DNA of 64,000 nt from Dehalococcoidia bacterium (GTDB lineage: Bacteria > Chloroflexota > Dehalococcoidia > Lucifugimonadales > UBA3495). The notes beneath the pieces are model-generated. The model ran no database searches and was not told the DNA's origin. It worked only from the letters and a program-made list of their open reading frames with translations. The stretch lies in contig CBDCQE010000001.1 of NCBI GenBank assembly GCA_965220505.1, positions 1,115,082 through 1,179,081 of the forward strand, in the 5' to 3' direction. Each line of letters starts with the position of its first letter. Within the stretch, counting starts at the first letter, position 1. This document shows positions 1 to 62,956 of the stretch, in pieces. The position numbers and the translations under genes are program-made.

Positions 1-29
1 CAGCATTGGGCAGGCACCGCCAGGAGGCC

Positions 30-70
30 GGAGAAAAGCAAATCGCCGACGTGGTTTAGGACGTCGGCGG
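30..70 (-). terminator. Rho-independent terminator downstream of tRNA-Glu
   Basis: 9-bp inverted repeat CGCCGACGT (44-52) / ACGTCGGCG (61-69) with an 8-nt loop. On the minus strand it is followed by ATTTGCTTTTCTC. Confidence 0.7.
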
Positions 71-356: not shown

Positions 357-659
357 AAACCGGGTACGCGTCAGAATTGGTGGGATGTGATGCCGATGAC
401 ACCCGCCAGCGATCCGGGACGTCAATCTGCTGTATCCTTACAGACATCCCAAGCCGATAATGAACTCAGCTCAACAAAGCATCGAATTATCGTATCCCCG
501 GGACCACTGCGGCCGACTACGTGGGATATCGCATGGGCCGTCAGCTACCGTCCGGTACTGTGACCGTCGGTGGCGACTACCGGAAATCGCGCTTTCGGCT
601 TATGTAAGGCACGGTTGATCCGACCCGTACAGCGCAAACACCGGACCATATCAGTGTGC

Positions 660-2899: not shown

Positions 2900-3610
2900 T
2901 TGAGATGTACTGTGCGGAAATTAACAGGTTAGTACACGTACCTTTACGCCGTATGATCCACATATTGTGTAACGATGCAGTTCCTGCATTGTGATAAATG
3001 CAACGAATGCGTCGAATGGGTACAAACGGCCTGACACAGTGTAAACTACTGATCTCTCAGTACGCCACCGTTTGCATTACATTTCGGTAATTGCGGTACA
3101 CGCATTGCAACGGCTGGATCCTCCTGATGATAATGCCACTGTGCGTTACACGTGTACCGACAGATGGTACACGCATCGCTCCATGAAGCGCCGACGAATG
3201 CAACGTAGAGAACGCGGTCCCAAGCGGTACACCGACGAGTATTCGGAGGATACCAGCTGAGGCATCCGGACCCCCAGGGCCGATTATCCCCGGCAACAAC
3301 GTTCGCGTCTCCATTCGCCCGACGCCAGGCACGTCGATAGGGTCCGGAAACGCCAAACTGGCCCAAGATAGCGAAAATTGCCCGGATTCGGTTTCCGCCT
3401 TCCTAGCGTTCAGCGTCGTGGTATGCCAAAATAAGCACGTAACCAGGGGCGTTCTAAAATAATATAAAAAACTTTTAGGACTGTTCTTTGGCTGCGCTTG
3501 ACAATCGTCCAATTCGTCAGTAGTGTAACGTCACGCTCACTTCGGTAATCGAAAAATGGGGTACCTGCCCTGTCGATTAGCGAATGTACAAAAATTGGTA
3601 CACCGTCGGA
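2900..3610. repeat. Lower-GC non-coding region with iterated GGTACAC-core and ATGCAAC motifs (iteron/operator-like array)
   Basis: Exact GGTACAC occurs at 3095, 3166, 3226 and 3597 (+) and at 3152-3158 (-). Two copies extend to GGTACACGCAT. Variants are found at 2932, 3019 and 3585. There is a perfect palindrome TACACGTGTA at 3147-3156. (A/T)TGCAAC occurs at 2998, 3105 and 3198. An inverted repeat ATGCAGttcCTGCAT lies near 2974-2989. No convincing ORF is present. Confidence 0.55.
3498..3526 (+). promoter_or_regulatory. Candidate sigma-70-type promoter for the small HTH gene
   Basis: TTGACA (3498-3503), a 17-nt spacer, then TAGTGT (3521-3526). It lies about 90 nt upstream of ATG 3619. Confidence 0.35.
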
Positions 3611-7383: not shown

Positions 7384-9066
7384 TCAGAGGGACCAGTCGT
7401 CGGGGAATTCGGGGGTGGGCAGGGGGCGGATCATGACCTCGACGAGGGCGGACTGGCCTTCCTCGGTGGCGCGAATGGCGCGCTGGAAAGCCGGCCGAAT
7501 GTCCTCGGGGTTGTCGACGCGCTCGGAGTAGCAGCCGAGGCCGTTGGCGACGACGCTGAAGTTGCCGCCCAGCACGGCCATCTCCGGGGGCGTGCCGTTC
7601 GGGTCTTCCATGCCCATCATGCCGCCGCCGGTGCCGCCGTTGTTGATGACGACGGTGAGGATGGGCAGGCCCATGCGGGAGGCGGTCTCCAGGTCCATGC
7701 CGGTCATGCCGAAGGAGGCGTCGCCGAGGACGTGGACGACCAGGTGGTCGGGGCGGCCGAGCTTGGTGCCGATGGCCGCGCCGACGGACCAACCCATGGC
7801 GGCCATGCCACCCATGGCGACGAAGTTGCGCGGTCGGGTGGTCGTCCAGAAGGGGACCACGTAGCCGCGGCTGCCGCCGGCGTCGTGGAGGGCGATGGTG
7901 CGGTCGGGGTCGATGAGTTGCTGGAGCTCGTGGACGACGCGATAGCCGTTGGTGGGGGTATCGGGGTCGGTGAAGCGGGGCATCCACTCGGCCTCAGCCT
8001 TCTCGTGGCAGGCGCGGATCTCGTCGACGATTTCCTGCTTCATGCCCCCGCCGCCGGGGCCGATGCGCTGGCGCACGGCGTCGATGATGGCGCGGAGGGC
8101 CAGCTTGGCGTCGGCGAGCATGGGAAGGTCAACCTGGTAGGTCTTGTTGAGGTCAGCGGGGTCGGCATTGATATGAATGATGCTGACGCCCTCGGGGATG
8201 GGACGGCCGTCTGTGCCGTTGGGCTGGCGGAAGGAGTTGCCGACCGCCAGGACGACGTCGGCTTTGCGGTTGATCTGGATGGCCGCGCCGGAAGCATACC
8301 GGCTGCGGGGATAGACGCCACCGCCCAGAGAGAGGGGATGGTTTTCCGGGAAGACACCCTTGCCCATGATGGTACTGGCGACGGGCATGGAGAGCATTTC
8401 CGCGATCTCGAGGACCTCATCGGCGGCGCCGGCGCTGAGGGCGCCGCCACCGACGTTGAGGATCGGGAAGCTGGCGTTGACCAGCATGTCGGCAGCGCGT
8501 TGGACCTCAGCATCGGAGGGGCCGGCCTTGCCGGGGGTGCCCACCGGGGTGTAGGCGAGGGCGGACTCGTCGGCCTCGGCGGTGAGGACATCCTGATGCA
8601 TTTCCAGGACGACCGGACCGGGTGAGCCGGAGCGCAGAGCAGTGAAGGCCCGGCGCATAACCTGGGGGATGTCCTGGACCCGGGTGAAGGCGCCGCGCCA
8701 CTTGCAAAGACCGTCGAAAATATTGGCCGAAACCTCCTGCTGCCATTCCTGGCCGAGGTTTCGCATGGGGTGCTGTCCCATGAGGAGCAGCACGGGGACG
8801 TTGTCGGCGTAGCATCCGGCGATGCCAGTGAGGCAGTTGGTGGCGCCGGGCCCGGTGCCGGTCATGGCGACGCCGACCTCACCGGTGGCGCGAGCAAAGC
8901 CGTCGGCGATCTCGACGCCGAGGCGCTCGTGGCGGGCGGCAAATGGCCGGATTGATGAGGCGCGCAAGGGGCCCCAGAGGGGGGCGAGGCCGCCGCCGGC
9001 GAATCCGGATATGTAACGTACTCCTTCCTGTTCGAGGGCCCTGACAACGGCTTCGGATCCACGCAT
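7384..9066 (-). CDS. Thiamine-pyrophosphate-dependent enzyme, acetolactate synthase large-subunit-like (paralog 1 of 3)
   Basis: N-terminal TPP-pyrimidine domain (GSEAVVRALEQEGVRYISGFAGGG). C-terminal TPP-binding motif GDASFGM...NNGG. I place the start at ATG 9066 with RBS AGAGGTG. The longer ORF to 9126 runs into a repeat element. Confidence 0.85.
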   Translation of the reverse strand: MRGSEAVVRALEQEGVRYISGFAGGGLAPLWGPLRASSIRPFAARHERLGVEIADGFARATGEVGVAMTGTGPGATNCLTGIAGCYADNVPVLLLMGQHPMRNLGQEWQQEVSANIFDGLCKWRGAFTRVQDIPQVMRRAFTALRSGSPGPVVLEMHQDVLTAEADESALAYTPVGTPGKAGPSDAEVQRAADMLVNASFPILNVGGGALSAGAADEVLEIAEMLSMPVASTIMGKGVFPENHPLSLGGGVYPRSRYASGAAIQINRKADVVLAVGNSFRQPNGTDGRPIPEGVSIIHINADPADLNKTYQVDLPMLADAKLALRAIIDAVRQRIGPGGGGMKQEIVDEIRACHEKAEAEWMPRFTDPDTPTNGYRVVHELQQLIDPDRTIALHDAGGSRGYVVPFWTTTRPRNFVAMGGMAAMGWSVGAAIGTKLGRPDHLVVHVLGDASFGMTGMDLETASRMGLPILTVVINNGGTGGGMMGMEDPNGTPPEMAVLGGNFSVVANGLGCYSERVDNPEDIRPAFQRAIRATEEGQSALVEVMIRPLPTPEFPDDWSL

Positions 9067-9109
9067 GGCTGCACCTCTAGTGGTTGTGCGGGCAACCGAC
9101 ATTCCGCCA

Positions 9110-9146
9110 GGGAACGAGATTGCCACGCTGCGCTCGCAATGACGGT
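9110..9146 (+). repeat. Dispersed repeat family C copy (GAGATTGCC.CGCT.CGCTCGCAATGAC)
   Basis: GGGAACGAGATTGCCACGCTGCGCTCGCAATGACGG. It matches 11785-11819 and 53498-53532. Confidence 0.7.
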
Positions 9147-11858: not shown

Positions 11859-13577
11859 ATGCCGCAGGCCCATGAGTTGATTGTGCAGTTTCTGGAGGAG
11901 GCGGGAATCGACGCCGTGTTCGGGATACCGGGCGGCGGGACGGGGCAGATTTTCACCAACCTGGTGGGAAAGGAGCCGGCGATCAACACGTACCTGACGC
12001 GGCACGAGCAGACGGCGGCGATCATGGCCGACGCTTACGCTCGGGCGACGGGGAAACCGGCGGTGATCATGGGGCAGGGGCTGTTCATGGGATCGAACGC
12101 ATCGTTCGGGATCATGGAGGCGATGCTGAGCAGCAGCCCGATGCTGGTGCTGACGGACACGTCGGACGGCGGCGTGGGGCAGCATCCGGCGAACCAGTCG
12201 GGGGCCGGCGAGTACGGGAGCATCGACCTCCACAACATCTTCCGGTCGATGACGAAGTACACGACCCTGGCGACCTCGCCCAAGGAGGCGGCGCTGGGGG
12301 CACAACTGGCGATCAAGCACTCGATGAGCGGGCGGCCGGGTCCGACGTGCCTGCTGATGCGGACGGCGTCCATCGCGGGGGAGGTTGACCTGGAGTCGCC
12401 GCCGTTCATCCACGACACGGCGGGGTACCTGAACACGGCCAAGCCACAGGCGGCGCCGGCGGACATCGAGAAGGCGGTGGAGATCCTGTCGCAGTCGCGG
12501 CGGCCGGTGATCGTGGCGGGTAACGGCGTGCACATGGCCGGGGCGCACGGCGCGCTGCAGCAACTAGCCGAGCAATGGAACGCGCCGGTGGCGACGAGCT
12601 ACAAGGGGAAATCGGCCATCGCGGAGACGCACCCGCTGTCGGTGGGCATGGTCGGGGTCTACGGGCAGGAGGCGGCGAACCGGGCGGTGGGCGACGCCGA
12701 CACGGTGGTGATCGTGGGGGCGAAGCTGAGCCCGCAGGACACGGTGCGGGAGCGGCCCAACATATTCAACCCGCGGGGGCAGCGGATCATCCAGATTGAC
12801 ATCGATGACCGGAACGCGGGATGGACCTTCCCGGTGGAACTGGGTCTGATCGGCGACGCGGGGAGCATCCTGGGGCAAATGGTGGAGGCATCGGCGGAGG
12901 AGGCGGGATTGACGGCGGGCAACCGGAGTGAGTGGGCCGGCGCGTTGCCGGGACGGAAGAATGACGCCGGGTTCTACGAGGACGCGGGGCTGCACACCGA
13001 CTCTTCGCCGGTGTTGCCGCAGCGGCTGGTGCGGGTCCTGCAGGAAACGATGCCGGCGGACACGGTGTACGCGCTGGACGCCGGGAACAACCGGACGTGG
13101 ATGGCGCACCTGTTCCAGTCGCAGCAGGCGCACACGTTCTTCTGCCCGGGCGGCACGGCCGGCATGGGCTGGGGATTGCCAGCGTCAGTGGGGCTCCAGA
13201 TCGCGTATCCGGGGCGGCCGGTGGTGAGCGTGACGGGAGACGGCGGGTACATGATGACGGTGAACGCACTGTCGACGGCGATGCAGTACAACCTGCCGAT
13301 CATCTGCGTGGTGTTCAACGACGGCGCGCTGGGCATGGTGCGGCATCACCAGGCTCCCGGGCAGTACATCGCATCGGAGTTCGCGGAGACGGACAACGCG
13401 GCGGTGGCGCGGGGGTTCGGGTGCTTCGGCGTGCAGGTGGCGGACTCGCGGAACCTGGGGGACGCGCTGAGGGATGCGCGGGCGTCGGGTCTGCCGGCGG
13501 TGGTGGACGTGCTGATCGACCGGGGGCCGAGTCCGGACGACTGGCGGGCGGACGCGCGGAGGTCGGGGGAGACTTAA
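11859..13577 (+). CDS. Thiamine-pyrophosphate-dependent enzyme, acetolactate synthase large-subunit-like (paralog 2 of 3)
   Basis: AHELIVQFLEEAGIDAVFGIPGGG N-terminal TPP domain. C-terminal GDGGYMM...NDGALG TPP-binding motif. Length is 572 aa. Confidence 0.85.
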   Translation: MPQAHELIVQFLEEAGIDAVFGIPGGGTGQIFTNLVGKEPAINTYLTRHEQTAAIMADAYARATGKPAVIMGQGLFMGSNASFGIMEAMLSSSPMLVLTDTSDGGVGQHPANQSGAGEYGSIDLHNIFRSMTKYTTLATSPKEAALGAQLAIKHSMSGRPGPTCLLMRTASIAGEVDLESPPFIHDTAGYLNTAKPQAAPADIEKAVEILSQSRRPVIVAGNGVHMAGAHGALQQLAEQWNAPVATSYKGKSAIAETHPLSVGMVGVYGQEAANRAVGDADTVVIVGAKLSPQDTVRERPNIFNPRGQRIIQIDIDDRNAGWTFPVELGLIGDAGSILGQMVEASAEEAGLTAGNRSEWAGALPGRKNDAGFYEDAGLHTDSSPVLPQRLVRVLQETMPADTVYALDAGNNRTWMAHLFQSQQAHTFFCPGGTAGMGWGLPASVGLQIAYPGRPVVSVTGDGGYMMTVNALSTAMQYNLPIICVVFNDGALGMVRHHQAPGQYIASEFAETDNAAVARGFGCFGVQVADSRNLGDALRDARASGLPAVVDVLIDRGPSPDDWRADARRSGET

Positions 13578-17864: not shown

Positions 17865-18818
17865 CTAGTCAATCACCGGCACCGAGGGGTCGAAATAAAC
17901 TTCGGCGGCGGCCAAGGCGGCCTGCTTTTCGGCGTCACGAACGGCGCAGGCGGCGTTCATGGCGAGCACGTCCTTGGCCCATTCGTCCACGGGCACGTCG
18001 ATCATGCGTCCGGCGAAGGGGGCGGCGGCGGTGCCGGCGGCAAGGGCCTGGGCGAACACCTCTCGAACCTGAGTGTAGTATTCGACCAACGATTCCGCGG
18101 GAGTGTAGGCGGCGTTGACGGGGGCGATCCAAGTGGGGTGCCCACAGACCATGCCCTTGAAGCCCAGGTTCCGGGAATCGGTGGCGATCTCGAACATATC
18201 CTCGTGGGAAAGATGCCCGGTTTGTACGCCCATAGGATCGGCGACGGCGATGGGCTGGACGCCGGCGGCGGTGGCCTCGATGCACAGCCGGCCGCGGGCG
18301 AACACGAAGGCGTCATGCTGCGAGGATTGGGTGATCCCGAGGGAGGCAGCCAGGGCAGCCTCATCGATGCCCACCTGTTTCACCCGAGGAGACGCGGTGA
18401 TGATCTCGCGGATGTGCCAGACGCCGGCCGCCGTCTCGATGGAGGGCGTGATTTCGAGAGAGCGGGGGACCGCGCCGTGGATCTTTTCCAGGTCGGCCAA
18501 AATTGTTTCGGCCTCCGCCACCTGATCGGCCGATTCAACGCCCGGCAACACTATCCCGGCCAAGTCAGGGCCGACGGCAGCGTTACTATCGGCGTAAACG
18601 AAGTCGGCGTTGACGCGAACGAAGACCTGCGCGCCGCCTTTGCCGGCGAGGGCCACCGACTGACGCAGAGTTTTGCGGACCCGAGCGAGTTCGGCGGTGG
18701 GCGTGCCGTCCTGCAGATCGATGGTGACCGCGTCGGCGTTGTGCATCCAACTGCGGGAGACCATCCGCGATTGGACGGCGGGAACGATCAGGTTGGAGCG
18801 TCGTACGAGTATGGACAT
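17865..18818 (-). CDS. HpcH/HpaI aldolase / citrate lyase beta (CitE)-like acyl-CoA lyase, paralog 3 in the operon
   Basis: RRSNLIVPA...ADAVTIDLQDG... family N-terminus. The start is taken at ATG 18818 with RBS GGGAG. Confidence 0.82.
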   Translation of the reverse strand: MSILVRRSNLIVPAVQSRMVSRSWMHNADAVTIDLQDGTPTAELARVRKTLRQSVALAGKGGAQVFVRVNADFVYADSNAAVGPDLAGIVLPGVESADQVAEAETILADLEKIHGAVPRSLEITPSIETAAGVWHIREIITASPRVKQVGIDEAALAASLGITQSSQHDAFVFARGRLCIEATAAGVQPIAVADPMGVQTGHLSHEDMFEIATDSRNLGFKGMVCGHPTWIAPVNAAYTPAESLVEYYTQVREVFAQALAAGTAAAPFAGRMIDVPVDEWAKDVLAMNAACAVRDAEKQAALAAAEVYFDPSVPVID

Positions 18819-18834
18819 ATAGGACAGCTCCCGA

Positions 18835-19857
18835 TCAGCCTGGGGATTCCGCGGCCTCGGCGGCACGCACGCGATCGATGGCTTCGGCTTTCTCCCGGTC
18901 GCGCTCCTGGCACAGGCTTTGCCATTGCAACAGTTCTTCTGCTCGCGCGGCTTCGTAGCGGTCGATTATGCGGTGACGGCCAAGGTAGGAGTCGGCGGCC
19001 ATCGGACGGGGAGAGGCCTCCCGATCCACTTGGGAAACGTCTACCTGGACCCAGGTATCTCCGGTGCGGGTGAGCTTGCGGTACTCTTGGAGCACCCACT
19101 GGGCGTCCGAAACCTCGTCGTCGGAAGGGGCGAACCCGCGGATCTGCGGCTCCACGACGGCCGGGTGTAAACCGCCTCCGATGCGGAACCCGCACTTTCG
19201 CGCCGCGTCCGCTTCGGCGAAAGCCCGGTCGGGGTCGCTGACGCTGCCGGTTATGTTAGGCGTGAACGGAGCCGCACGAGGTTCGCGACCGGCGGCGCGG
19301 GCCGCGAGTTCAACCTCGCCCTTGCCATACACGAACTGGTCAAAGCTCACGAACATTTCGACGCCGAGGTCGCGGGACATGTCGTATCCGGAAGCGCCGC
19401 CGAAATCGCGAACGCGACTACTCGCGGTGACGATCTCATAAGAGTTGGCGACTCCGACGGCGGTCTCGATGTTGGCGCCGATTTCGACGGTGCCGGGCCT
19501 GATGCCCCGTTCAGCTTCCAGGCGAGTGATGATCGCGTCCATGCGCTCGATTTCGCGGCCGTACTCTGCCTTGGGATAGTTGACCATCATGATACCGGGC
19601 CAGATCACGGCGTTGAGGTCTGCTTCCATCAAGTCATGGTTGATGCGGCATACTGCGTCGGCTCCGCCCTTGTTGACCACCGCGATGGATTCACGGACGA
19701 GGCTGCGCGCATAGTCCTTGAGATTGGGAGGGACCGAGTCCTCCAGGTCCATGTTGATGTAGTCGCAGCCGCGATGCCAGGCGTTGTTGATGAAGCGCGG
19801 AGTGACGATGGGCATCGTCAGACCGGACCGTTTCAGTCGCCGAGTTGAGCTGGGCAT
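18835..19857 (-). CDS. HpcH/HpaI aldolase / CitE-like acyl-CoA lyase, paralog 2
   Basis: PRFINNAW...CDYINMDLEDSVPP motif. RBS GGAG lies 7 nt upstream of ATG 19857. Confidence 0.82.
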   Translation of the reverse strand: MPSSTRRLKRSGLTMPIVTPRFINNAWHRGCDYINMDLEDSVPPNLKDYARSLVRESIAVVNKGGADAVCRINHDLMEADLNAVIWPGIMMVNYPKAEYGREIERMDAIITRLEAERGIRPGTVEIGANIETAVGVANSYEIVTASSRVRDFGGASGYDMSRDLGVEMFVSFDQFVYGKGEVELAARAAGREPRAAPFTPNITGSVSDPDRAFAEADAARKCGFRIGGGLHPAVVEPQIRGFAPSDDEVSDAQWVLQEYRKLTRTGDTWVQVDVSQVDREASPRPMAADSYLGRHRIIDRYEAARAEELLQWQSLCQERDREKAEAIDRVRAAEAAESPG

Positions 19858-19866
19858 GGGTAACTC

Positions 19867-20808
19867 CTAGGGGACAGGAACCGGAATGCCTTTCACCGCG
19901 GCGGCTTTGAATCGGTCCCGGGTCGAGCAGGCATCAGCGAGGGTGACGGTATTTGCGGCCTGCCCGACGATGTCCGGCGTCAGGACGCGCTCGTCCACGG
20001 ATACCATGGTGCACGTGCCCGATGCGGTTGCCGACGCGTACGCCTCGCACAACGCATGAGCCGCCGCGACCTCGGACTCGGAAGGGGTGAAGCCCGAGTT
20101 CAAGGGACGAACCTGATTGTCCAGAACGCAGAAAGAACCCTTGAACCCGATGGCGCGCCCGCGTTGTGCGGCGGCGAGGGTGTTTTCGGGTGTTGCCAAC
20201 AGCCCGCGATCGGGGAACCTCCACCATGCTCCTATGGGGACGGTTCCCGTGGCTGACGCCAGAGTCACCAAGCGCTGCATGAGGTACTGCATGAAGTGCG
20301 TTTCGCCCGAAGGCTCGGGCCGCAGGTCCATGACCAAGTCGGCGCGTCCCAGGGAAAGGCCCCAGGTACGTGAACTGGCGGTGGCGACCTCGAAACCGTT
20401 GTGGTTGCCCGGGGCGGTTTCCAGGCAGAGGACCAGTTCGACGCTGCCCGGCGACATGCCGCGGCGGCTCTCCAGTTCGGAGATGATGGCGTCGATGGAG
20501 ACGACCTGCTCCGGAGTTTCCACGCGGGTCACGACGATGCCGTCGAGACCGGGCCACACGGCGGCGGTGAGATCGGCGAGCATCAACTCGGGGTCGATCT
20601 GAACGAACACGTCCGCACCGGTGGACTTGGCGGGAACCAGGCAATCGCGCAGGGACTCGCGGGCCGCCGGTTTATCCGGTTCGGCCACGAATTCCGCCAG
20701 GTCCAGCACGATTACGTCGGCGCCGGCCGAGGGGGCATTCGATACGCGATCCGGATGCGAGACCGGGGTCAGCAACCAGGAACGCCTGACTGTGGAGAGC
20801 ACTGTCAT
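19867..20808 (-). CDS. HpcH/HpaI aldolase / CitE-like acyl-CoA lyase, paralog 1
   Basis: RRSWLLTPVSHPDRV...ADVIVLDLAEFV motif. Length is 313 aa. Confidence 0.82.
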   Translation of the reverse strand: MTVLSTVRRSWLLTPVSHPDRVSNAPSAGADVIVLDLAEFVAEPDKPAARESLRDCLVPAKSTGADVFVQIDPELMLADLTAAVWPGLDGIVVTRVETPEQVVSIDAIISELESRRGMSPGSVELVLCLETAPGNHNGFEVATASSRTWGLSLGRADLVMDLRPEPSGETHFMQYLMQRLVTLASATGTVPIGAWWRFPDRGLLATPENTLAAAQRGRAIGFKGSFCVLDNQVRPLNSGFTPSESEVAAAHALCEAYASATASGTCTMVSVDERVLTPDIVGQAANTVTLADACSTRDRFKAAAVKGIPVPVP

Positions 20809-34678: not shown

Positions 34679-36316
34679 CTAACTCCTGCAGAAGGTGGGG
34701 AAGCCGTCGGGCATGACAACTTCGATGAGATGGATGCGGTCGGTGGTTACGGCGTCCTGGACGGCGCGGGTCATTTCGGAAACGTTGCGGACCTGGGTGC
34801 CGCCGATGCCGTAAGCGTCCGCGAGTTTCATGAAGTCGGGGTTGACCAGATCCGTCGCCATCTGTCGACTTCCGCGATCACGTTGATAGCCTTTGAGGAC
34901 GCCCCAAGCGTTGTCGTTGAAAACCATTACGACGGGGTTGATGCCGTATTGGACGGCGGTGCCAAGTTCCTGGGCGTTGTACTGAAAGCCACCGTCTCCG
35001 GATACGCAGATTACGGGGCTACCGGGCCGGCCAACTTTGGCTCCCATGGAGGCGGGGAAGGCGAAGCCCAGGCCGGCCCAGCCGTGGGGGTACATGTAGC
35101 TGCGGGGCCGGTCCATCTGGAGGCAACGCACGGCGCGGTTGGCCGGGACGGTGGCATCAAGGGAGAAGATGGTGTCGTCAGGAATAACCGAGCGGATCGA
35201 TTCCCACGCGCGCAGTTCGGGGCCCCACTGTTCCTGCAGGCCGGAGTAAATGCTGGCCTTCAGGTCGGCGATTTCCCGTTGATAGTCATTGCTGGTGCCG
35301 AGATCGTCACCGGCGGCGCTGAGGAACTGGCGGACCACCGCCCCACTGTTGGCAGCGATACCGACCTCGGTGTCGTAGTTCTTGCCGATATAGTCCTCGT
35401 CCAACAGGACGTGGACGATCTTTTCGGGGAGCTTGACGCCAACCCCGGCAGTCGAGCGGTAGGGCAGGTTGCTGCCCAGCACCAGCGCGACGTCGCAGTC
35501 ACCCATCCAATCCAGCACCGGATTTTGACCCCAGATGCGGTTGCCCAAGGCCATGCCCAGGGACAGAGGATGGCTTTCGGGGAAAGTGCCCTTGGCGCCA
35601 TCGCCGGTTACCACGGGAGCGCCGATCTTTTCGGCCAGGCGGATTATGTCATCCGCCCCGCCGGTGGTATGGATCTCTTCGCCGAGGAAGATCACGGGGC
35701 GTTTGGCGTTGCGAAGCAAATTCCAGGCGCGTTCCACCTGTACCGGGTCACCCTGGGGGACGTCCGGGTCGCGCGGCCGGAGCACCTCGACCTCCGCCTG
35801 CTGGCCGAGCAGGTCGGTGGGCACCTCGAGCTCGATGGGGCGGGGACGGCGTTCACCGAAGCGGACGAACGCCTCGACGAAGTGGTCCGGGATGGACTCG
35901 ATCTGATCGATGCGAGCGTTCCAGTCGGTAACGGCCGCGAACATGCCCAACTGGTCCTTGGTCTCATGGGTGGCCATCTTGCCGCTGCCCACGAACTCGG
36001 CTTCGACGTTGGTGGTCACCTGAAGGATGGATGAAGCGGAGAAATAGGCCTCGCCCATCGCGCCGACCGAATCGGCAGCGCCCGGGCCGGTGCTGGTCAG
36101 GATAACCCCGGGGCGTCCAGTGGCGCGCGAATAGCCGTCTGCCATGTAGCCGCAGCCCAACTCGAGCCGGCCGCCGATGAAACGCACGTCATCCTGCTTG
36201 TCAAACAGGGCATCGAAGAGGTCGAGGGTATGGACGGAGATGATGCCGAACACAGTGTCGACACCCTGGGCCTGGAGAGACGCGACCACAGCCTGGCCGC
36301 CGGTCATCTGGGGCAT
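34679..36316 (-). CDS. Thiamine-pyrophosphate-dependent enzyme, acetolactate synthase large-subunit-like (paralog 3 of 3)
   Basis: MTGGQAVVASLQAQGVDTVFGI N-terminal domain. GDGGFQYNAQELGT...NDNAWG TPP-binding motif. It starts 28 nt after the E2 stop. Confidence 0.85.
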   Translation of the reverse strand: MPQMTGGQAVVASLQAQGVDTVFGIISVHTLDLFDALFDKQDDVRFIGGRLELGCGYMADGYSRATGRPGVILTSTGPGAADSVGAMGEAYFSASSILQVTTNVEAEFVGSGKMATHETKDQLGMFAAVTDWNARIDQIESIPDHFVEAFVRFGERRPRPIELEVPTDLLGQQAEVEVLRPRDPDVPQGDPVQVERAWNLLRNAKRPVIFLGEEIHTTGGADDIIRLAEKIGAPVVTGDGAKGTFPESHPLSLGMALGNRIWGQNPVLDWMGDCDVALVLGSNLPYRSTAGVGVKLPEKIVHVLLDEDYIGKNYDTEVGIAANSGAVVRQFLSAAGDDLGTSNDYQREIADLKASIYSGLQEQWGPELRAWESIRSVIPDDTIFSLDATVPANRAVRCLQMDRPRSYMYPHGWAGLGFAFPASMGAKVGRPGSPVICVSGDGGFQYNAQELGTAVQYGINPVVMVFNDNAWGVLKGYQRDRGSRQMATDLVNPDFMKLADAYGIGGTQVRNVSEMTRAVQDAVTTDRIHLIEVVMPDGFPTFCRS

Positions 36317-41124: not shown

Positions 41125-41258
41125 CAATCTGTCCGGATAGGTGGATTGTTCGAGCGTAACGCGCCCCGCATCTGGCTTGCGCCGCTATGGCGGGGGCTGC
41201 GCGCGGACTTTGGCATTATAGCGGCGGCATTGGACAGCGGCAAGTTGGGGCGAACCGA

Positions 41259-41296
41259 GATCGGCCGCCCCCTCCAAGATGAGGGGGCGGCCGATT
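41259..41296 (-). terminator. Strong 15-16 bp GC hairpin downstream of the extended FTR-like gene (putative terminator, weak U-tract)
   Basis: GATCGGCCGCCCCCTC-caagat-GAGGGGGCGGCCGAT(T). It lies 40 nt past the TGA at 41336-41338. Confidence 0.5.
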
Positions 41297-41335
41297 TCCA
41301 CGGGCAGAGCCCGTTTGAGACGTACTTCCGGCGGG

Positions 41336-41761
41336 TCAGGACGGGCGGTTGCGACGCTCTTCCTCACGTTCCTCGGCCTTGTGGCGCAACGGACGACCCT
41401 TGTCCGGTGTGGGGTCTTTCACCTCGCCATATATGGCGCGGCCTTCGTGGTCCTCGGGTAGATATTCGGTGATGGGCAGACCTGCCTCATTCACGAAAAG
41501 CAGTCAATGACAGTACTTGTAGATCTGCATATCGTCGCAGGCGCAAATCCACGTGCGGTGCTTGACCTCCTCCTGCTTGCACGGGTAGAAGCGACAGGGA
41601 CAGAGTGGGCGGCCGATTTCGTCGACGTTCTGGGCCAAACCCAGGATCACGGCTTCGGCGACGCCTTCTTCCGGATGTGTGAATGTGCCGGATTTTTCGC
41701 AATATCGCTCTACAAAAAGGCGCATCCGGGCTATTGATTTTTCGCTGGGCTGGTCAGCCAC
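41336..41761 (-). CDS. Ferredoxin:thioredoxin reductase catalytic-subunit-like protein with in-frame UGA (predicted selenocysteine U86; CPC...CAC...CH-U)
   Basis: GTG 41761 follows RBS GAGGAGGA. The translation is ...GRPLCPCRFYPCKQEEVKHRTWICACDDMQIYKYCH-TGA-LLFVNEAGLPITEY...RNRPS*. The TGA (41506..41504) sits at the third position of the CHC motif. The same frame is open for 52 further codons. A SECIS-like hairpin follows, and selC is in the window. Confidence 0.75.
41469..41494 (-). promoter_or_regulatory. Bacterial SECIS-like stem-loop 9 nt downstream of the UGA
   Basis: The mRNA reads GUGAAUGAGGCAGGUCUGCCCAUCAC. It forms an ~11-bp stem with two bulged A residues and an apical GGUC loop. 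The core GCAGGUCUGC is identical to the E. coli fdhF SECIS apex as I recall it (GGUUGCAGGUCUGCACC). The loop GU lies 23-24 nt after the UGA, compared with 20-21 nt in fdhF. Confidence 0.65.
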
Positions 41762-41972
41762 TTGGGTCCTCCTCAGGTTGCAAGGTTGTCGGGCGCAATG
41801 ACGGCCTGGCGACAACCCAGTTTCTTGTACAGATGTTAGTAGGGTCTGATGGATTCTGCAACGTTCGCGACGGTCTGATCAGGGATCAGTTCCCAAGGCC
41901 GGCCGAATTTCCCCGTGATGGTATCATGAGCCGGATGAATTTACGGTCCGCAATAAATGGCGAGGCAATGAA

Positions 41973-44291: not shown

Positions 44292-46154
44292 TCAGGGGGA
44301 CGCCGGGGGCAAAGTACAGGGACCGGTGCATCCCGGCGGAACGGACATGGACGCTCGATCCGGAAGAGCGCATCCCATCCCGGCCAGGGTGTCGACCACC
44401 CGGCAGGCGGGCAATCCCATTACGTTGGAGTAGCAACCCGAAAGCAGAGAAGCCGGCCTAAAGTCCGGGTCCTGGATGGCGTAGGCGCCGGCTTTGTCCA
44501 TGGGAGTGCCGCTGGCGATGGATTCTTCCATTTCGGCATCGGTGAAGTCGCGCATCTGGACATCGGCGGCGTTGGCGTCGGTGATGCAGCGACCGGTTGC
44601 AGCGTCGTAAACGGTGAAGCCGGTGATCACCTGGTGAGTGGTAGCGCGCAGGCGGCGGAGCATGGATCGGGCTTCCTCGGCATCCGCGGGCTTGGCGATG
44701 GACTCGCCGTCCAGGACCACCGTGCTGTCGGCGGCGACGTAATAGCCGGATGATGGCGTCTCCGCCCCGGCAACGGCCAGGGCTTTCTCCCGCGACAGCC
44801 GGCGAACCATTTGCTCAGGGCTCTCGTTGGGTTCCTGGTCCTCGGGTATGGCGGAGGGAGCCACGCGGAAATCGATACCCAAACCGGACAGCAATTCCCG
44901 GCGGCGGGGAGACGCGGACGCCAGCACTATTTCGGCGGTCGCCGGCTTGGTGACCAGCGTCGCCACGCATTCCACGTGGTGCGTTTGGGGGAACATATCC
45001 ACCGGCTGAACCGACTGGATGCGGTAGCCCCGGCTCAGCGTGCGCAAATCCCGGGCCAGCGACTCCGGGTTGCAGGACACGTAGGCGATGCGGTTCGGTC
45101 GCAGGGTGAGGAGGGTTTCCAGGACGGCGGGCTGGCATCCAGAGCGAGAGGGGTCCAGGATCACGGCGTCGGGTGTCACGTCGAGACCGGGGAGGATTTC
45201 TTCCACCTTACCAGTTGCTAACCGGACGTTAGGGTGGCCGGCGGCGTTCACGGTGGCATCGGCGATGGCCGCGGTGGATTCTTCCACCGCGATGATCTCT
45301 CGGGCGAAAGGCGCCAGCAGCACGGCGAAAGTCCCGACGCCGGCGTAGGCGTCGACCACGGTCTCGTTGCCGGTGAGTTCCAGCGCGTCCTTGACCAACT
45401 CGGCAAGCCGGGCCGCCTGCCACACGTTAACCTGGAAGAAGGACGGCGACGCAACCCGGAATTCCTGGTCGGCTACGGATTCGCGGTAAGTCTTCTGGCC
45501 AGTGGGGATCGCGATCCCAGGGTTCTTGAGGGTTGGCTGGACGAGGTAGTCGTCGGTTTGCGGAGAGGAGCGGATAGCCAACTGCGAGGTCTCCGCGGCG
45601 CGTCCCTGCAATTGGGCCAGAATGTCGTTGATGCCGTCGTGCATCAGCAGGCAACGGTCGATACGGACGAAGCGGCGGCGTTCCCGATGGGTGAACCCGA
45701 GGCTGCCGCTTTCGCGCCAGACGTTGAAACGCGCATGGTTGCGGTAGTGATATTGGCGGGGTGACGCCAGGGTGGGTTGAACGTCAGGGTCGTGGAAGTT
45801 GCCAATTCGCTCCAGCGCGTCCCGCACAATCTCGGTTTTGACAGCCAGTTGCTCCTCGTAATCGACGTGCTGCCATTGACAACCGGTGCATTGGCCGAAG
45901 TATTCGCACGGCGGTTCCACCCGAGCCGGGGACGGGGTAATCACGCGAGTGACCTGGGCAGCGATGTATTTCCGGCGCACGGCCACGATCTCGGCTTCGA
46001 CCCGCTCGCCGGGTATGCCGCCGAAGACGAAAACGTCCGATCCGGCGTAACGGGCCATAGCCTCGCCGAGGCGGCCCCACGCATGGAGGTCCAACTCGAC
46101 GATGTCGCCGCGTTCAACTGTGGCGGCGTGGTTCGAGACTGCGGTCTGCGTCAT
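44292..46154 (-). CDS. Fusion protein: RlmD/RumA-type 23S rRNA (uracil-5-)-methyltransferase (aa 1-~400) plus Maf-like nucleoside-triphosphate pyrophosphatase (aa ~408-620)
   Basis: The RumA part has a TRAM domain, Fe-S Cys motif CEYFGQCTGCQWQH, DPSRSGC, VSCNPESLARDL and DMFPQTHHVECV. The Maf part has IVLASASPRRRELL...DKAGAYAIQD. It is a single uninterrupted frame. Confidence 0.8.
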   Translation of the reverse strand: MTQTAVSNHAATVERGDIVELDLHAWGRLGEAMARYAGSDVFVFGGIPGERVEAEIVAVRRKYIAAQVTRVITPSPARVEPPCEYFGQCTGCQWQHVDYEEQLAVKTEIVRDALERIGNFHDPDVQPTLASPRQYHYRNHARFNVWRESGSLGFTHRERRRFVRIDRCLLMHDGINDILAQLQGRAAETSQLAIRSSPQTDDYLVQPTLKNPGIAIPTGQKTYRESVADQEFRVASPSFFQVNVWQAARLAELVKDALELTGNETVVDAYAGVGTFAVLLAPFAREIIAVEESTAAIADATVNAAGHPNVRLATGKVEEILPGLDVTPDAVILDPSRSGCQPAVLETLLTLRPNRIAYVSCNPESLARDLRTLSRGYRIQSVQPVDMFPQTHHVECVATLVTKPATAEIVLASASPRRRELLSGLGIDFRVAPSAIPEDQEPNESPEQMVRRLSREKALAVAGAETPSSGYYVAADSTVVLDGESIAKPADAEEARSMLRRLRATTHQVITGFTVYDAATGRCITDANAADVQMRDFTDAEMEESIASGTPMDKAGAYAIQDPDFRPASLLSGCYSNVMGLPACRVVDTLAGMGCALPDRASMSVPPGCTGPCTLPPASP

Positions 46155-46229: not shown

Positions 46230-46502
46230 GTCATTCCTGCGCAAGCGGGGAATCGAGAGAACGAAATTGCTATATGCGCTTCAAATTCGTTCATTCTATT
46301 AGGAGTTACGCGCTTGAAATTCCCACGCCCGTCACTCCGGCGAAAGCCGGAGTCCAGAAGTCTCAGCGTGAAAGAATCGGAAAGACGGTTAACGATTTCG
46401 GGCACTGGATTCCGGCTTTCGCCGGAATGACGGAAGGAAAGGCACGCAACTGCGTAAGTCCTATCTATGACTGATGGATGCCGGCTTTCGCCGGAATGAC
46501 GG
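46230..46502. repeat. Cluster of at least four family-B hairpin repeats (two form a ~103-bp MITE-like unit with inverted ends)
   Basis: GTCATTCCTGCGCAAGCGGGGAATCGAG at 46230-46257. GTCACTCCGGCGAAAGCCGGAGTCCAG at 46331-46357. CTGGATTCCGGCTTTCGCCGGAATGACGG at 46405-46433. TGGATGCCGGCTTTCGCCGGAATGACGG at 46475-46502. Spurious translations give the familiar ...IPAFAGMT... and ...RHSGESRNP... strings. Confidence 0.8.
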
Positions 46503-46676
46503 TTCGGGATGAAAGGCCGCCAACCGGGACTTTGGAAAGGCCAGTCAGCCAGTAGGGGTTCGGTTGACCGCCCCACAGGCGGGGTATAATATTGGCAACA
46601 TCCCGGCCGGCTAACGTGGCGGCGGTTGCCGTCTGCTGTTACGGCTGCAAAGCGATTCAATCTGGAGGAATTTAGA

Positions 46677-47006
46677 ATGCCCGAACCTATCGAAGTGAAC
46701 GGAGAGAACTGGCAAAGCAACGTGATGGACTCGGATCTGCCGGTGATGGTGGACTTCTGGGCGGAATGGTGCGGGCCCTGCAAGATGATCGCTCCGGCCG
46801 TGCATGACCTGGCGCTGGAGTACGAAGGGAAGCTGAACGTGGCCAAGCTGGACGTGGACAACGCGCCGGAAATCGCCGCACAATACGGCATCCGCAGCAT
46901 CCCGGCGTTGATTTTCTTCAAGAACGGACAGCCGATTGACCAGGTCGTGGGCGCGCAGCCCAAGCCGGCCCTGAAGCGGAAGATCGACGCGGTGCTGGAG
47001 AGCTAA
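46677..47006 (+). CDS. trxA: Thioredoxin
   Basis: WAEWCGPCKMIAP active site. Length is 109 aa. RBS GGAGGA precedes ATG 46677. Confidence 0.92.
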   Translation: MPEPIEVNGENWQSNVMDSDLPVMVDFWAEWCGPCKMIAPAVHDLALEYEGKLNVAKLDVDNAPEIAAQYGIRSIPALIFFKNGQPIDQVVGAQPKPALKRKIDAVLES

Positions 47007-47018
47007 GCGCTGATTCGC

Positions 47019-47115
47019 GGGAGTGGATGGGGCCCGGTGGCTCTTGCGGACTTCAAATCCGTTATGCCTCGTGACGAGCGGGGTAGGTGGGTTCGACTCC
47101 CTCGCACTCCCGCCA
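47019..47115 (+). tRNA. selC: tRNA-Sec (anticodon UCA), selC, CCA encoded
   Basis: Length is 97 nt. The sequence is GGGAGTGG-AT-GGGGCC-CGGT-GGCTCT...GCGGA-CTTCAAA-TCCGT, followed by a long variable arm (ATGCCTCGTGACGAGCGGGGTAG), ...GGG-TTCGACT-CCC and ...CACTCCCGCCA. The 6-bp D-stem with 4-nt loop, long extra arm and UCA anticodon parallel E. coli selC. Confidence 0.85.
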
Positions 47116-59223: not shown

Positions 59224-61116
59224 TCAGGGTAGCCACTTGTACCACAACAAAGCGCCGTAAGCGATAGTCACCAGCAATCCGATTACGATTGATGTGGTCT
59301 GCTCCAACCGTCGGCTGACCGCGTCGCGGAACACTACACCATATCCCTCGTAGAAAACTGCGCCTTCGTGGTCTTGATATTGCTGCTCTTCCAATATGTC
59401 GCCGGCCCGGTCGCGGTGCAGATCCCACACGTTGATAATCAGGAATACGATAACGGCGGAGAACAGCACCACCAACATTTCGACGAGGAAGCCGATCCAG
59501 CCGGTTACGCCGGGACGCGAGGCCATGCCGATGAACACGGTAATGCCGCCGAATATGATCAGCGCAAACAACTCACCGAACTCGATGCCCTGTTGCCGTG
59601 AATGGGCGATGACGTTGAGCTGGGTTTCGGCCTCGGCGAGTTGGACCTGATCGTCAGGGTTGGGATTCGATGCCTCGGCCCGGTCCAAACAATCCTTGGT
59701 GTCCTGGTAAGCGGTTTTCAGTTGTTCGGGAGTCACCGCCTTGTCAATGCTGATGACGTGCATTCGGGCGGCCTGGTGGATTACGTCGCGGCGGGCCAGC
59801 AAGTCAACGTTCTGGAACAGGGTGTAGAGGCGGTTATCCTCTTCCTGGGTCTGTGTGGATAGCCGGGCTACCCGGAAGGAGCGCAACAGAGTGAACACAG
59901 TGGCGGACAGGCCCAGGGCGCCGAAGTAGGTTTCTCCGGGCCACTGCCATTCACCAAAGGGCAGGTATTGCAGCACATCGTCCCGCAGATAGACGAAGGC
60001 GCCGCAGGTCCACAGGGCCAGCAGCAGAGCCTTGAAGCCGAACCTGACCTCCGCCTCAGAGTTAATCAGCAGGTTGACGATGACTATTCCTATGATCCCA
60101 ATGATGAGATAGTCCAAGTTCTCCGGCTGAGTCTGGGTGAGCAAAAAGAGCCATGCCAGGCTGAATACGGGAGCCGCAAAGGCCAGAGCGTTGACGCCCG
60201 CGTGGTGGGCAATAAGGTTGGCTTTACGCCAGGCCGCGTTGGCGATGCCGCTGGCTGCGCCGCCCACGACAATCGCGATGAAGAGCGAGCGGGAATCCAT
60301 CACTTCGCCGCTGCTGATTCCGACAAAGGTGTTCAAAAGGCCGGAGACGGCGCTGGCGATAAGGAGGGCAACCAGAAGGCCCAAGAAGTCCAAATCGCCT
60401 TGATCCGGGGCCTCGTCTTGGTCCGACTCATCGTCCGCGGTGACTGGCCGGCCCGCATGTGAAATTTCTTCCGCCAGGTCGGTTCCCCAGCGGAATCCGA
60501 AGGCGTTGCAGGCGGTGGCAATTGCGCCCAGCGTCGCGAGGACGACACCGATGACGAGCTCGGCGAGACGACCGGTTTCGACGTTCTGGAAGCCGCCGGC
60601 CTGCCCGACAATGATGAAGGCGAAACCCAGCAAGCCAAATGCGATCAACAACAATATTTCAGGGGAGAGCCGGTGGTATCGCTCTTCATGTTTGTACAAT
60701 CGGTCGTGAATGATGACAATGAAAATCGGCCAGGTACCGAACATGATGGCGCTGATGGACACGTCCACAAAGCGAGTCGACCAGGCCAAAAAGGCGAAGT
60801 TGAAGTTGGCGGCTATGGAGAGGACAATCCTGTGATCGATGGCACGACCAACGACCAGGCGCAGCATATTGGCGTTGAACAGCAGGGAAGGGTACCGGTA
60901 GGCGATAAAGACCAGACAGCCAAGGACGACACCGGCACTCATGGCGGCGTTGAACAGGAAGGGCGTTTTTCCGCCCCCACCCCAGGAAATGATCAGAGGC
61001 AGGGCCGAAAAGAGGGCTACGGCCAACAGCATGTAGGCATTGGCGAGACGGTTCCCAATCAGGCGGTCCCTGGCCATATTGGGTATCTGTATCAACGTCC
61101 GGGGCGCGTTTCTCAT
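59224..61116 (-). CDS. ~15-TM membrane protein of unrecognised family, tandem paralog 1
   Basis: RBS GGGAGG lies 7 nt upstream of ATG 61116. There are about 12 N-terminal TM segments; the first ~10 are DMT/EamA-like in layout only. A ~105-aa helical soluble insert follows, then 2 TM, a ~50-aa loop and a terminal TM ending LLWYKWLP. Confidence 0.7.
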   Translation of the reverse strand: MRNAPRTLIQIPNMARDRLIGNRLANAYMLLAVALFSALPLIISWGGGGKTPFLFNAAMSAGVVLGCLVFIAYRYPSLLFNANMLRLVVGRAIDHRIVLSIAANFNFAFLAWSTRFVDVSISAIMFGTWPIFIVIIHDRLYKHEERYHRLSPEILLLIAFGLLGFAFIIVGQAGGFQNVETGRLAELVIGVVLATLGAIATACNAFGFRWGTDLAEEISHAGRPVTADDESDQDEAPDQGDLDFLGLLVALLIASAVSGLLNTFVGISSGEVMDSRSLFIAIVVGGAASGIANAAWRKANLIAHHAGVNALAFAAPVFSLAWLFLLTQTQPENLDYLIIGIIGIVIVNLLINSEAEVRFGFKALLLALWTCGAFVYLRDDVLQYLPFGEWQWPGETYFGALGLSATVFTLLRSFRVARLSTQTQEEDNRLYTLFQNVDLLARRDVIHQAARMHVISIDKAVTPEQLKTAYQDTKDCLDRAEASNPNPDDQVQLAEAETQLNVIAHSRQQGIEFGELFALIIFGGITVFIGMASRPGVTGWIGFLVEMLVVLFSAVIVFLIINVWDLHRDRAGDILEEQQYQDHEGAVFYEGYGVVFRDAVSRRLEQTTSIVIGLLVTIAYGALLWYKWLP

Positions 61117-61132: not shown

Positions 61133-62956
61133 TCAGCTGATCCATTTGTACCAGAGCAGCACCGCGTAGGCAGCTATTATCAGCAAGCCGATTACAACCG
61201 ACACGCCCCGTTCAAATCGGCGGCTTCTGGGATCGCGAAAGATTACGCCGTAACCCTCCGGCCCCTCCTGGGTGTCCAGGACCAGGTTGGCGCGGTCCCG
61301 ATGCAAGTCCCACACGTTGACAATGAGGAAGATTATCACCGCCGGGAACAGCGCGCTGAATACCTCATACAGGAATGCCGTCCATCCCGAGACCTCAGGC
61401 CGGGACAGCAAGGACAGCAGCACGGTGCTGCCGCCGAAAATGATGAGGGCAAATAGCTCGCCAAAGTCCACGCCCTGCTGGCGGGAGTGGACCATCATGT
61501 TGAGCTGGGTCTCGGCGTTGGCCAACAGCCGGCGGTCGGCGACGGGCAGGTCCACGGCGGCGGCCTGAACGAAACAGAATTTGACCCGAGTGTAGGCACG
61601 TCGCAGTTCTTCGACGTTCCGGGAGCCGTCGACGGCGCGGAGATGTTCGCTGGCCTCGGGAGCGATCAGGCGGCGGCGGGCCAGCAGTTCCAGGTTGCGG
61701 TGCAAGGCGAAGATGCGGTTGTCCTCGTCCTGGGTGCGTGGAGCGATGCGGGCGACGCGGAAGGTGAGCAGCAGGATAAAGACAGTGGCCGAGAAGCCCA
61801 GGGCGCCCAGGTAGGTCTCCCGAGGCCAGAGCCAGCCGCCAAAGGGGAGGTAGATTAGGAATTCGTCGCGGAGATAGACGAAGGCGCCACAGCCCCAGAG
61901 GGCCAGCATCAAAGCTTTAAACCCAAAACGTATATCAGCCTCAAAGTTGATAAGGAGATTTGTGGAGATGATGGCGACTGCGCCGATGACCAAGTAGTCA
62001 ACACGGAGCACATCAACCTTTCCGAACACCGCAAGCCAAGCGAGGCTAGCGACCGGTATCGCGTACCCAAGCGCGTTGATACCAAGATTCGTGGTGACCA
62101 TATTGGCCTTGCGTAGCAGGATGCTCGCAGGAGCATGCAAGAGCAAACCACCCAATGCGGCGACTGTAAGCATACTAAGGTTTACGGGGCCTCCCGAAGC
62201 GAAACCGATCCCGGCGTTCATCACTGCAACCAAGAAGCTGCTGATCCCGAACCCAAGAATCACTCCAAAAAAGACCGTACCGTCATTGCCTAAATGAAAA
62301 CGGGCCGCCTCCTTCAGCCTTCCGGCCAACTCCCTACCCCACACAAATGGGAAAGCACCAAGAGAGGCTGCGACCGCTGCCAGAAGCGCAAGAAAGACAC
62401 CGAACAGGATGTCGGAAAAAAGCACTCCATCGAAACTGACAAAATCCTCGGTCTGGCTGCCGACTACCAGGACAAAGCCTCCTAACGCTACAACCAGAAA
62501 GAGAAAGATGGATTGGAAATTCCTCCGATAGACCCTTTCTTCACGGAGCAGCCAGCCAGTCAGCAGTATGAAGAATACGGGCCATGTTTCGAGAAGGATC
62601 GCAGCAATTGAAACATCGACGAAGCGAGTCGCCCAAGCGAACAGAGCATAGTCAAAATTTCCGATAGTGGCCCAGAAGATTGCCCAACTCGCGGTGTGGC
62701 GGGCGGCCAAGGAAATCACCACCGGGTCCATGATCAACGACCGGTAGAGCGCCAACAAGACTAGGGCACAACCCCCGGCAACCCCCAATCTCCACGCCGC
62801 ATTGAACAGGAACGGATTCTCAAAACCGCCGGCCTGGCTAATCAACAACGGTACGAGCGAATAAAAAAACACCGCCATGAGCATATAGCCGGCGGCGAGA
62901 TTGTTATTTGAATCCCTATTTGTGGACTCAGCAGCCATGACAACGGATTGTAGCAC
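61133..62956 (-). CDS. ~15-TM membrane protein of unrecognised family, tandem paralog 2
   Basis: It is collinear with paralog 1 throughout (e.g. LINFEADIRFGFKALMLALWGCGAFVYLRDE vs LINSEAEVRFGFKALLLALWTCGAFVYLRDD; ends LLWYKWIS). The start is uncertain (GTG 62956 or ATG 62938). Confidence 0.7.
   Translation of the reverse strand: MLQSVVMAAESTNRDSNNNLAAGYMLMAVFFYSLVPLLISQAGGFENPFLFNAAWRLGVAGGCALVLLALYRSLIMDPVVISLAARHTASWAIFWATIGNFDYALFAWATRFVDVSIAAILLETWPVFFILLTGWLLREERVYRRNFQSIFLFLVVALGGFVLVVGSQTEDFVSFDGVLFSDILFGVFLALLAAVAASLGAFPFVWGRELAGRLKEAARFHLGNDGTVFFGVILGFGISSFLVAVMNAGIGFASGGPVNLSMLTVAALGGLLLHAPASILLRKANMVTTNLGINALGYAIPVASLAWLAVFGKVDVLRVDYLVIGAVAIISTNLLINFEADIRFGFKALMLALWGCGAFVYLRDEFLIYLPFGGWLWPRETYLGALGFSATVFILLLTFRVARIAPRTQDEDNRIFALHRNLELLARRRLIAPEASEHLRAVDGSRNVEELRRAYTRVKFCFVQAAAVDLPVADRRLLANAETQLNMMVHSRQQGVDFGELFALIIFGGSTVLLSLLSRPEVSGWTAFLYEVFSALFPAVIIFLIVNVWDLHRDRANLVLDTQEGPEGYGVIFRDPRSRRFERGVSVVIGLLIIAAYAVLLWYKWIS

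Follow-up and report, generated by a model that had tools for sequence, protein, structure and literature searches.

A predicted selenocysteine-containing protein of the ferredoxin:thioredoxin reductase family in a Dehalococcoidia genome

The gene, its reading frame and its motif

We analysed a 64,000-nt stretch of a Dehalococcoidia bacterium genome (contig CBDCQE010000001.1), hereafter the window, and within it a minus-strand gene related to the catalytic subunit of ferredoxin:thioredoxin reductase (FTR). The gene very probably encodes a 141-residue selenoprotein of the FTR catalytic-subunit (FeThRed_B) family, in which an in-frame UGA would be decoded as selenocysteine (Sec). It sits between a divergent Uma2 endonuclease gene and an lpd-pdhABC cluster, and looks monocistronic. 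The parts of the gene are as follows.

41336..41761, minus: recoded FTR-like gene of 141 codons, with a GTG start at 41761, the predicted Sec codon at position 86 and the stop TGA at 41338..41336
41768..41774, minus: Shine-Dalgarno sequence GAGGAGG, 6 nt 5' of the GTG start, from direct sequence reading
41504..41602, minus: predicted cluster and redox motif C54-P-C56 ... C73-A-C75 ... C84-H-U86, in invariant alignment columns and aligned to the FTR chains 1DJ7 and 7BZK
41504..41506, minus: in-frame UGA at codon 86, predicted to be read as Sec, the third residue of the CH[C/U] motif
41336..41503, minus: the 55 codons after the predicted Sec codon (LLFVNEAGLPITEYLPEDHEGR...RNRPS), together with the true stop

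The frame before the internal TGA reads ...RPLCPCRFYPCKQEEVKHRTWICACDDMQIYKYCH and then continues in-frame to the TGA at 41338..41336, while the N-termini of homologues (MA/P-DQPSEK) fit the GTG start at 41761. A first-pass annotation of this DNA, made from the letters alone, had described a gene at 41761..41336 with an in-frame TGA at 41506..41504 and a total length of 141 residues, and all of these are present. It had also reported that the same frame stays open for 52 codons past the TGA; the frame is indeed open, but for 55 codons, the figure of 52 being the length of a separately callable GTG open reading frame (ORF) at 41494..41336.

The read-through product belongs clearly to the FTR catalytic-subunit family. 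It scores 72.7 bits against the Pfam model PF02943 (FeThRed_B), compared with 60.8 bits for the 85-residue truncated product and a cutoff of 22, and its best matches in the PDB are FTR catalytic chains, namely those of Arabidopsis (7BZK, E = 4e-23) and Synechocystis (1DJ7, E = 9e-21). Residues C54, C56, C73, C75, C84 and U86 align residue for residue with both chains, the Sec occupying the sixth position. The alignment with 1DJ7 runs at an offset of +1, so that U86 corresponds to Cys87 and C56 to Cys57 of Synechocystis FTR. The first-pass annotation had placed the UGA at a redox-active Cys, and this agrees with the role of Cys87 as partner of the nucleophilic Cys57. The motif spacing of 16 and 8 residues is exact, as had also been pointed out, with the TGA in the place of the final Cys (C54-P-C56/C73-A-C75/C84-H-[TGA]86). 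Additionally, the suggested parallel between the LLF after the TGA and the MLFL after CHC in FTR is seen in both aligned reference proteins and in the close homologues: the reference FTRs read CHCMLFL where the window protein reads CH[TGA]LLFV.

The protein thus shares with canonical FTRs (the Synechocystis 1DJ7/2PVO series and Arabidopsis 7BZK) the CPC-X16-CxC-X8-CHC spacing followed by (M/L)LF, and differs from them in having Sec for Cys87, CAC for CPC as the middle motif, and a longer C-terminal tail, which is specific to the subfamily and reaches past the Pfam FeThRed_B domain. The host differs too, being one of the non-photosynthetic Dehalococcoidia/SAR202. No adjacent gene for the variable subunit (FeThRed_A) was seen, either among the scanned ORFs of the window or among the genes with Pfam annotation that surround six orthologues (20-kb loci from other genomes).

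Because of the established FTR structures, C54, C73, C75 and C84 are the predicted ligands of a [4Fe-4S] cluster, and C56 and U86 form the predicted redox pair. The latter assignment agrees with a preprint on plant FTRC. There, indirectly and in Arabidopsis numbering, the nucleophile that forms a mixed disulfide with thioredoxin is given as the CPC cysteine, with its intramolecular partner 30 residues downstream, which matches C56 and U86. An AlphaFold2 model of a Cys-type orthologue (P0001) has a mean pLDDT of 64, with values below 50 across the cluster region.

Orthologues and the hairpin past the UGA

Of the 2,474 homologues found by a protein search, those nearest to the window protein are 141 residues long and 75-84% identical to it at 100% query coverage. 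Column 86 is Cys, followed by LLF, in all 23 aligned close homologues (~141 residues each), and the tail is strongly conserved. Hence the homologues do not end at ...YCH without a third Cys, as they would if the TGA marked the natural end of the protein. At the DNA level, we surveyed 80 orthologous loci, one per species-level genome and nearly all from metagenome-assembled genomes (MAGs) of Dehalococcoidia/SAR202. Codon 86 is TGA in 36 of them, TGC in 40 and TGT in 4, so that the search for orthologues with UGA or UGC at this codon, proposed in the first-pass annotation, found 36 of the former kind and 44 with TGC or TGT. The continuation after codon 86 has the identical length of 55 codons in every surveyed locus. 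One orthologue, in OZ242004.1, is 99% identical to the window protein.

The region past the UGA is maintained as coding sequence. Codons 87-141 have a dN/dS of 0.082 among the 37 Sec loci (the 36 surveyed and the window), against 0.062 for codons 1-85. Constraint on the post-TGA region thus equals that on the part preceding it; the possibility that the downstream codons are unconserved does not apply. Neither a second in-frame TGA or other stop nor any frame disruption was found in any of the 37 Sec loci. Specifically, codons 87-89 (L-L-F), which lie between the UGA and the GTG at 41494, are conserved as amino acids while their synonymous sites vary. In a neighbour-joining tree, the TGA forms fall into two separate clades, one of 35 loci that includes the window and the other a pair (L051 and L053), which implies at least two switches between Sec and Cys.

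One complete Dehalococcoidia chromosome, OZ253455.1, carries two Cys-type paralogues (L065 and L072) about 0.9 Mb apart.

In public data, the exact 85-residue product occurs, unnamed, on 19 contigs, and the 52-residue tail is called as an ORF of its own on 12 contigs. The full-length matches of the protein search include no complete Sec-type orthologue (90-99% identical). This split into 85 and 52 residues is what had been anticipated from the sequence, namely that standard gene callers would truncate the gene.

Downstream of the UGA, the transcript can form a hairpin resembling a bacterial Sec insertion sequence (SECIS).

41465..41497, minus: SECIS-like hairpin, +10..+42 counted from the U of the UGA, RNAfold -10.8 kcal/mol

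The hairpin starts 9 nt past the UGA, has a GGUC apical loop (41482..41479) and two bulged A residues (A17 and A20), and folds as the first-pass annotation had proposed. Its apex contains the decamer GCAGGUCUGC (41485..41476), which is identical, GGU loop nucleotides included, to the apex of the E. coli fdhF SECIS; the fdhF sequence used here was verified by a 100% match inside fdhF in 5,413 genome records. The element GCAGGTCTGC has a single occurrence in the window; its position is +22..31 here, as against +19..28 in fdhF. The apex is thus 3 nt further from the UGA and in the same codon phase, both of which had been noted beforehand and hold. The two elements differ in that the hairpin carries bulged A residues where fdhF has a bulged U, in their lower stems, and in the cognate SelB, which here would come from a different phylum. 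Compared with shuffled sequences, the 33-nt hairpin (41497..41465) is more stable at z = -2.26, with 7 of 200 shuffles folding equally well.

The contrast between Sec and Cys loci, compared at an identical GC content of 0.55, makes the hairpin more than a chance fold. For the segment +10..+42, the mean minimum free energy is -10.1 kcal/mol in Sec loci, compared with -4.5 kcal/mol in Cys loci (Mann-Whitney p = 7e-13). The upper-stem pairs 18-34, 19-33 and 21-32 are formed in 28-32 of 32 Sec sequences, compared with 10-16 of 42 Cys sequences. The codon choice in the loop follows the same division: GGT encodes the loop Gly in 35 of 37 Sec loci and in 1 of 44 Cys loci, and CTG encodes the Leu that comes after it in 35 of these Sec loci and 12 of these Cys loci. 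Over codons 89-100, the synonymous third-position entropy falls to 0.53 of the gene average in Sec loci, which ranks it with the 4 lowest of 119 sliding windows; the ratio for Cys loci is 0.88 (36 of 119). The Cys-type orthologues from Dehalococcoidia/SAR202 (for example P0001, P0095 and P0108, recorded as 'ferredoxin:thioredoxin reductase [Chloroflexi bacterium]') resemble the window protein in length (141 residues), tail and motifs, but have TGC or TGT at codon 86 and neither the upper stem nor the GGU loop, and vary freely at synonymous sites of codons 89-100. Two apex variants occur among the Sec loci: GGCA[GGUC]UGCC, in proteins with 'NEAG' and of the window type, and GGGC[GGUCU]GCCC, in proteins with 'TEGG'.

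Decoding of the UGA and rival explanations

The window contains a gene for the tRNA that would be needed to decode the UGA.

47019..47115, plus: tRNA-Sec with anticodon UCA, called by ARAGORN and matching Rfam RF01852 at 66.4 bits against a gathering threshold of 47

The tRNA-Sec gene lies 5.5 kb from the FTR-like gene and starts 12 nt past trxA (both within 46626..47115, plus strand), which matches TIGR01068 at 127.6 bits, has a probable ATG start at 46677 and encodes a WCGPC active site; the 12-nt gap suggests that trxA and tRNA-Sec are co-transcribed. The first-pass annotation had drawn attention to this proximity. The distance and the order are correct, but the link is not conserved: the FTR-like gene has other neighbours in six further Sec-type genomes (UDP-glucose dehydrogenase, DinB and DNA ligase genes), where no tRNA-Sec was found within 10 kb of it and the only tRNA nearby is a tRNA-Val. 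Conserved synteny with trxA and tRNA-Sec is thereby ruled out, and the proximity is incidental to this genome.

Several observations weigh against Sec decoding or against the hairpin as its signal. None of selA, selB and selD was found in the 64-kb window when family models were run on ~40 of its 54 candidate ORFs, these being the larger ones and the remainder being smaller than the three proteins. The hairpin in its 66-nt context folds like shuffled sequence (z = -0.29), and a crude SECIS-like rule fires on 15 of the 1,670 TGA triplets of the window, so that folding alone is weak evidence. The lower stem forms in Sec and Cys loci alike and is for this reason a by-product of the F-V...I-T-E coding sequence. 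Covariation in the alignment of 32 Sec sequences is thin: structure S1 has one double-change pair (G-C to U-A at columns 15-36, in L051 and L053 of the second Sec clade), which is the sole compensatory one, and shuffles often equal the observed scores, and none is seen for structure S2. Sequences of the TEGG sub-clade have as their minimum-energy fold another hairpin, of 10-12 bp, that includes the UGA itself (-14 to -23 kcal/mol), which makes the exact SECIS geometry less certain for part of the family. Finally, no curated Rfam SECIS model matched, either at the gathering threshold across the whole window or at E <= 10 over 41380..41560, where a chance miRNA match was the only hit; this check is uninformative rather than negative.

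The UGA-containing hairpin of the TEGG loci (L004, L034, L035, L039 and others) lies at locus positions ~3257..3283 and competes with the SECIS apex. The Leu88 codon in these loci is almost always CTC, which pairs within that hairpin. The structure could be a regulatory alternative or a coincidence.

We also considered the ORF at 570..1784 (plus strand) as a disguised SelD. It was rejected, as it scores 72 bits against a selD cutoff of 125 and does not have the N-terminal Cys/Sec-Lys motif of SelD. The ORF encodes a member of the AIR-synthase family (PF00586 and PF02769) whose similarity to HypE, ThiL and SelD stays below threshold. A scan of the window for in-frame TGA codons with coding signal on both sides gave nothing convincing in the way of other selenoprotein genes.

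If the UGA simply terminated translation, the gene would yield an 85-residue truncated FTR-like protein, possibly accompanied by a 52-residue peptide initiated separately at GTG 41494. Public gene calls show exactly this split, and TGA is a normal stop in this genome. We nevertheless regard termination as very improbable: the putative second start has no Shine-Dalgarno sequence, the conservation of L-L-F at codons 87-89 as amino acids with variable synonymous sites falls upstream of it, the truncated product would lose half of a redox pair that is invariant in all Cys homologues, and the Sec-specific hairpin and loop codons would be left unexplained. An artefact of sequencing or assembly, or a TGC-to-TGA mutation that recently inactivated the gene and left a pseudogene, would be conceivable for a window from a MAG-like source, as TGA is one base change from TGC. 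The same TGA, however, recurs in 36 independently assembled species-level genomes and in two separate clades, the exact truncated product is found on 19 contigs, and the downstream region has a dN/dS of 0.08 with intact frames. The recurrence, the downstream constraint and the intact frames together exclude error and pseudogenisation for practical purposes, and this explanation has the smallest likelihood of those considered here.

The UGA might also be read as Cys or Trp, by near-cognate suppression or a lineage-specific code change, with no Sec involved. Low-level misreading of UGA as Cys or Trp occurs in bacteria, Cys is the residue of the homologues, and the absence of selA, selB and selD from the scanned ORFs of the window would fit such a reading. 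It is contradicted by the use of TGA as an ordinary stop in 13 of 30 family-supported genes of the window, where it is the commonest stop, and as the terminator of this very gene; a reassigned code is therefore excluded. The tRNA-Sec gene likewise speaks against it, and SelB-dependent recoding, unlike simple read-through, requires a hairpin such as the conserved fdhF-like one seen here, whose loop nucleotides are under selection. Like termination, Cys or Trp read-through thus appears highly unlikely.

Decoding of the UGA as Sec is the reading that we favour. The data show the anatomy of the sequence, the alternation of Sec and Cys at codon 86, purifying selection beyond the UGA, selection on the hairpin at the RNA level in Sec loci alone, and a tRNA-Sec gene; the insertion of Sec, the binding of SelB, and the protein's cluster, electron donor and substrate are what we infer. 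On meeting the UGA at codon 86, the ribosome would receive Sec-tRNA(Sec) from a SelB-type elongation factor anchored by the hairpin that spans 10-42 nt downstream; the hairpin would present its GGU-containing apical loop 22 nt past the UGA. Sec would then be inserted and translation would run for 55 more codons to the real stop. In the folded protein, C54, C73, C75 and C84 are expected to hold the [4Fe-4S] cluster, and C56 and U86 to form the redox-active bond beside it, a selenenylsulfide in place of a disulfide. By analogy with FTR, C56 would be the exposed nucleophile that attacks the disulfide of a substrate, probably a thioredoxin-fold protein. Cys87 of FTR is reportedly bound by the cluster in a transient manner. 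As the cluster-proximal partner, U86 would similarly be held transiently by the cluster after the first electron and would then resolve the mixed disulfide.

Related selenoproteins, neighbouring features and significance

Homologues of the FTR catalytic subunit are already established as a selenoprotein family, contrary to the impression of novelty in the first-pass annotation. Zhang & Gladyshev 2008 (PMC2398784) listed the FTR catalytic subunit among seven new selenoprotein families in the metagenome from Global Ocean Sampling (GOS). The reads JCVI_READ_1093012271142 and JCVI_READ_841845 (Dataset S2 of the same paper) encode ...YCPU...ICPC...FCIU..., with Sec at both redox positions. Reviews of 2022 and 2026 list the FTR selenoprotein family with the motif CxU, and the double-Sec form is curated as the NCBIfam model NF041072 ('FtrB family double-selenoprotein'). 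The double-Sec family and the window protein have in common the FeThRed_B fold, the six-position Cys/Sec motif, a Sec at CxU aligned with U86, an uncultured marine source, and prediction from a UGA aligned to Cys together with a SECIS. Identity between the window protein and the GOS founder is 32% over 94 residues, and their Sec and Cys positions align.

The two differ in Sec count, length and model score. The double-Sec proteins carry two Sec residues (CPU and CIU, for a diselenide) in ~105 residues; the window protein carries one predicted Sec and retains Cys at CPC, for a selenenylsulfide, and its 141 residues include the conserved 55-residue tail. At 45.9 bits, it falls short of the NF041072 equivalog cutoff of 160. 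The window gene is thus outside the NF041072 equivalog and represents a separate single-Sec lineage of the same kind. A more distant FeThRed_B relative is FDR of Methanosarcina acetivorans (4TPU; a weak match, E = 2.5e-4), which needs no variable subunit and differs in its fused rubredoxin domain, its use of Cys only and its archaeal origin.

Two further features lie on the downstream side of the gene.

41260..41295, minus: 15-bp perfect GC-rich stem-loop, 41 nt past the stop of the FTR-like gene; RNAfold of 41336..41256, -47.8 kcal/mol
41243..41215: sigma-70-like promoter match for lpd, which together with the stem-loop separates the FTR-like gene from lpd

The strong hairpin that had been noted after the extended stop is this 15-bp stem (41295..41260). 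It may be a transcript-end or stabilising structure; a terminator scan did not call it, as no U-tract is present.

Elsewhere in the window, three 29-nt palindromic REP-like copies (CCGTCAyTCCGGCGAAAGCCGGArTCCAG, in both orientations; 46329-46357, 46405-46433 and 46475-46502) are located in the 450-nt gap between rlmD-maf and trxA and yield spurious ORFs containing 'PAFAGMT' and 'HSGESRNP'. The rlmD-maf gene is a 620-residue ORF (44292..46154, minus) in which an RlmD-type 23S rRNA methyltransferase (~17-400) is fused to a Maf nucleotide pyrophosphatase (~405-600). Three tandem citE/HpcH-like lyase genes occupy 17865..20808 (minus), and three acetolactate-synthase-like genes dependent on thiamine pyrophosphate are scattered at 7384..9126, 11859..13577 and 34679..36316. 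Two adjacent ORFs of 607-630 residues (59224..61116 and 61133..62956, minus) have good coding signal and no significant NCBIfam or Pfam family, the latter showing a sub-threshold EamA match only. A 92-nt tRNA-Arg(tcg) called by ARAGORN at 59595..59686 (plus), antisense to the 630-residue ORF, is probably a false positive; Rfam found nothing there at E <= 1.

The finding does not define a new category, as the family, the Sec position and the logic of prediction are already published. With it, FTR-like selenoproteins reach into an abundant lineage that is marine and sponge-associated. The gene is present, split into an 85-residue fragment and a 52-residue orphan ORF, in at least 36 species-level genomes of Dehalococcoidia/SAR202, and many of these are complete chromosomes. 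NF041072, the sole curated selenoprotein model of the family, misses the gene, and a new model or an exception rule would mend this recurrent error. The close sets of Sec and Cys orthologues, at 75-84% identity, are suited to asking what Sec does at the cluster-proximal position of an Fe-S disulfide reductase. More speculatively, and with the odds clearly against it at present, the single-Sec (CPC...CHU) enzymes might stem from at least two independent Cys-to-Sec conversions, both at the cluster-proximal rather than the substrate-attacking residue, and the UGA-sequestering hairpin of the TEGG loci might be a switch that competes with the SECIS. If this were true, the conversions would mean that selection favours an Fe-Se interaction or a selenenylsulfide in cluster-coupled one-electron chemistry, and would offer a natural experiment on the FTR mechanism that is distinct from the double-Sec family.

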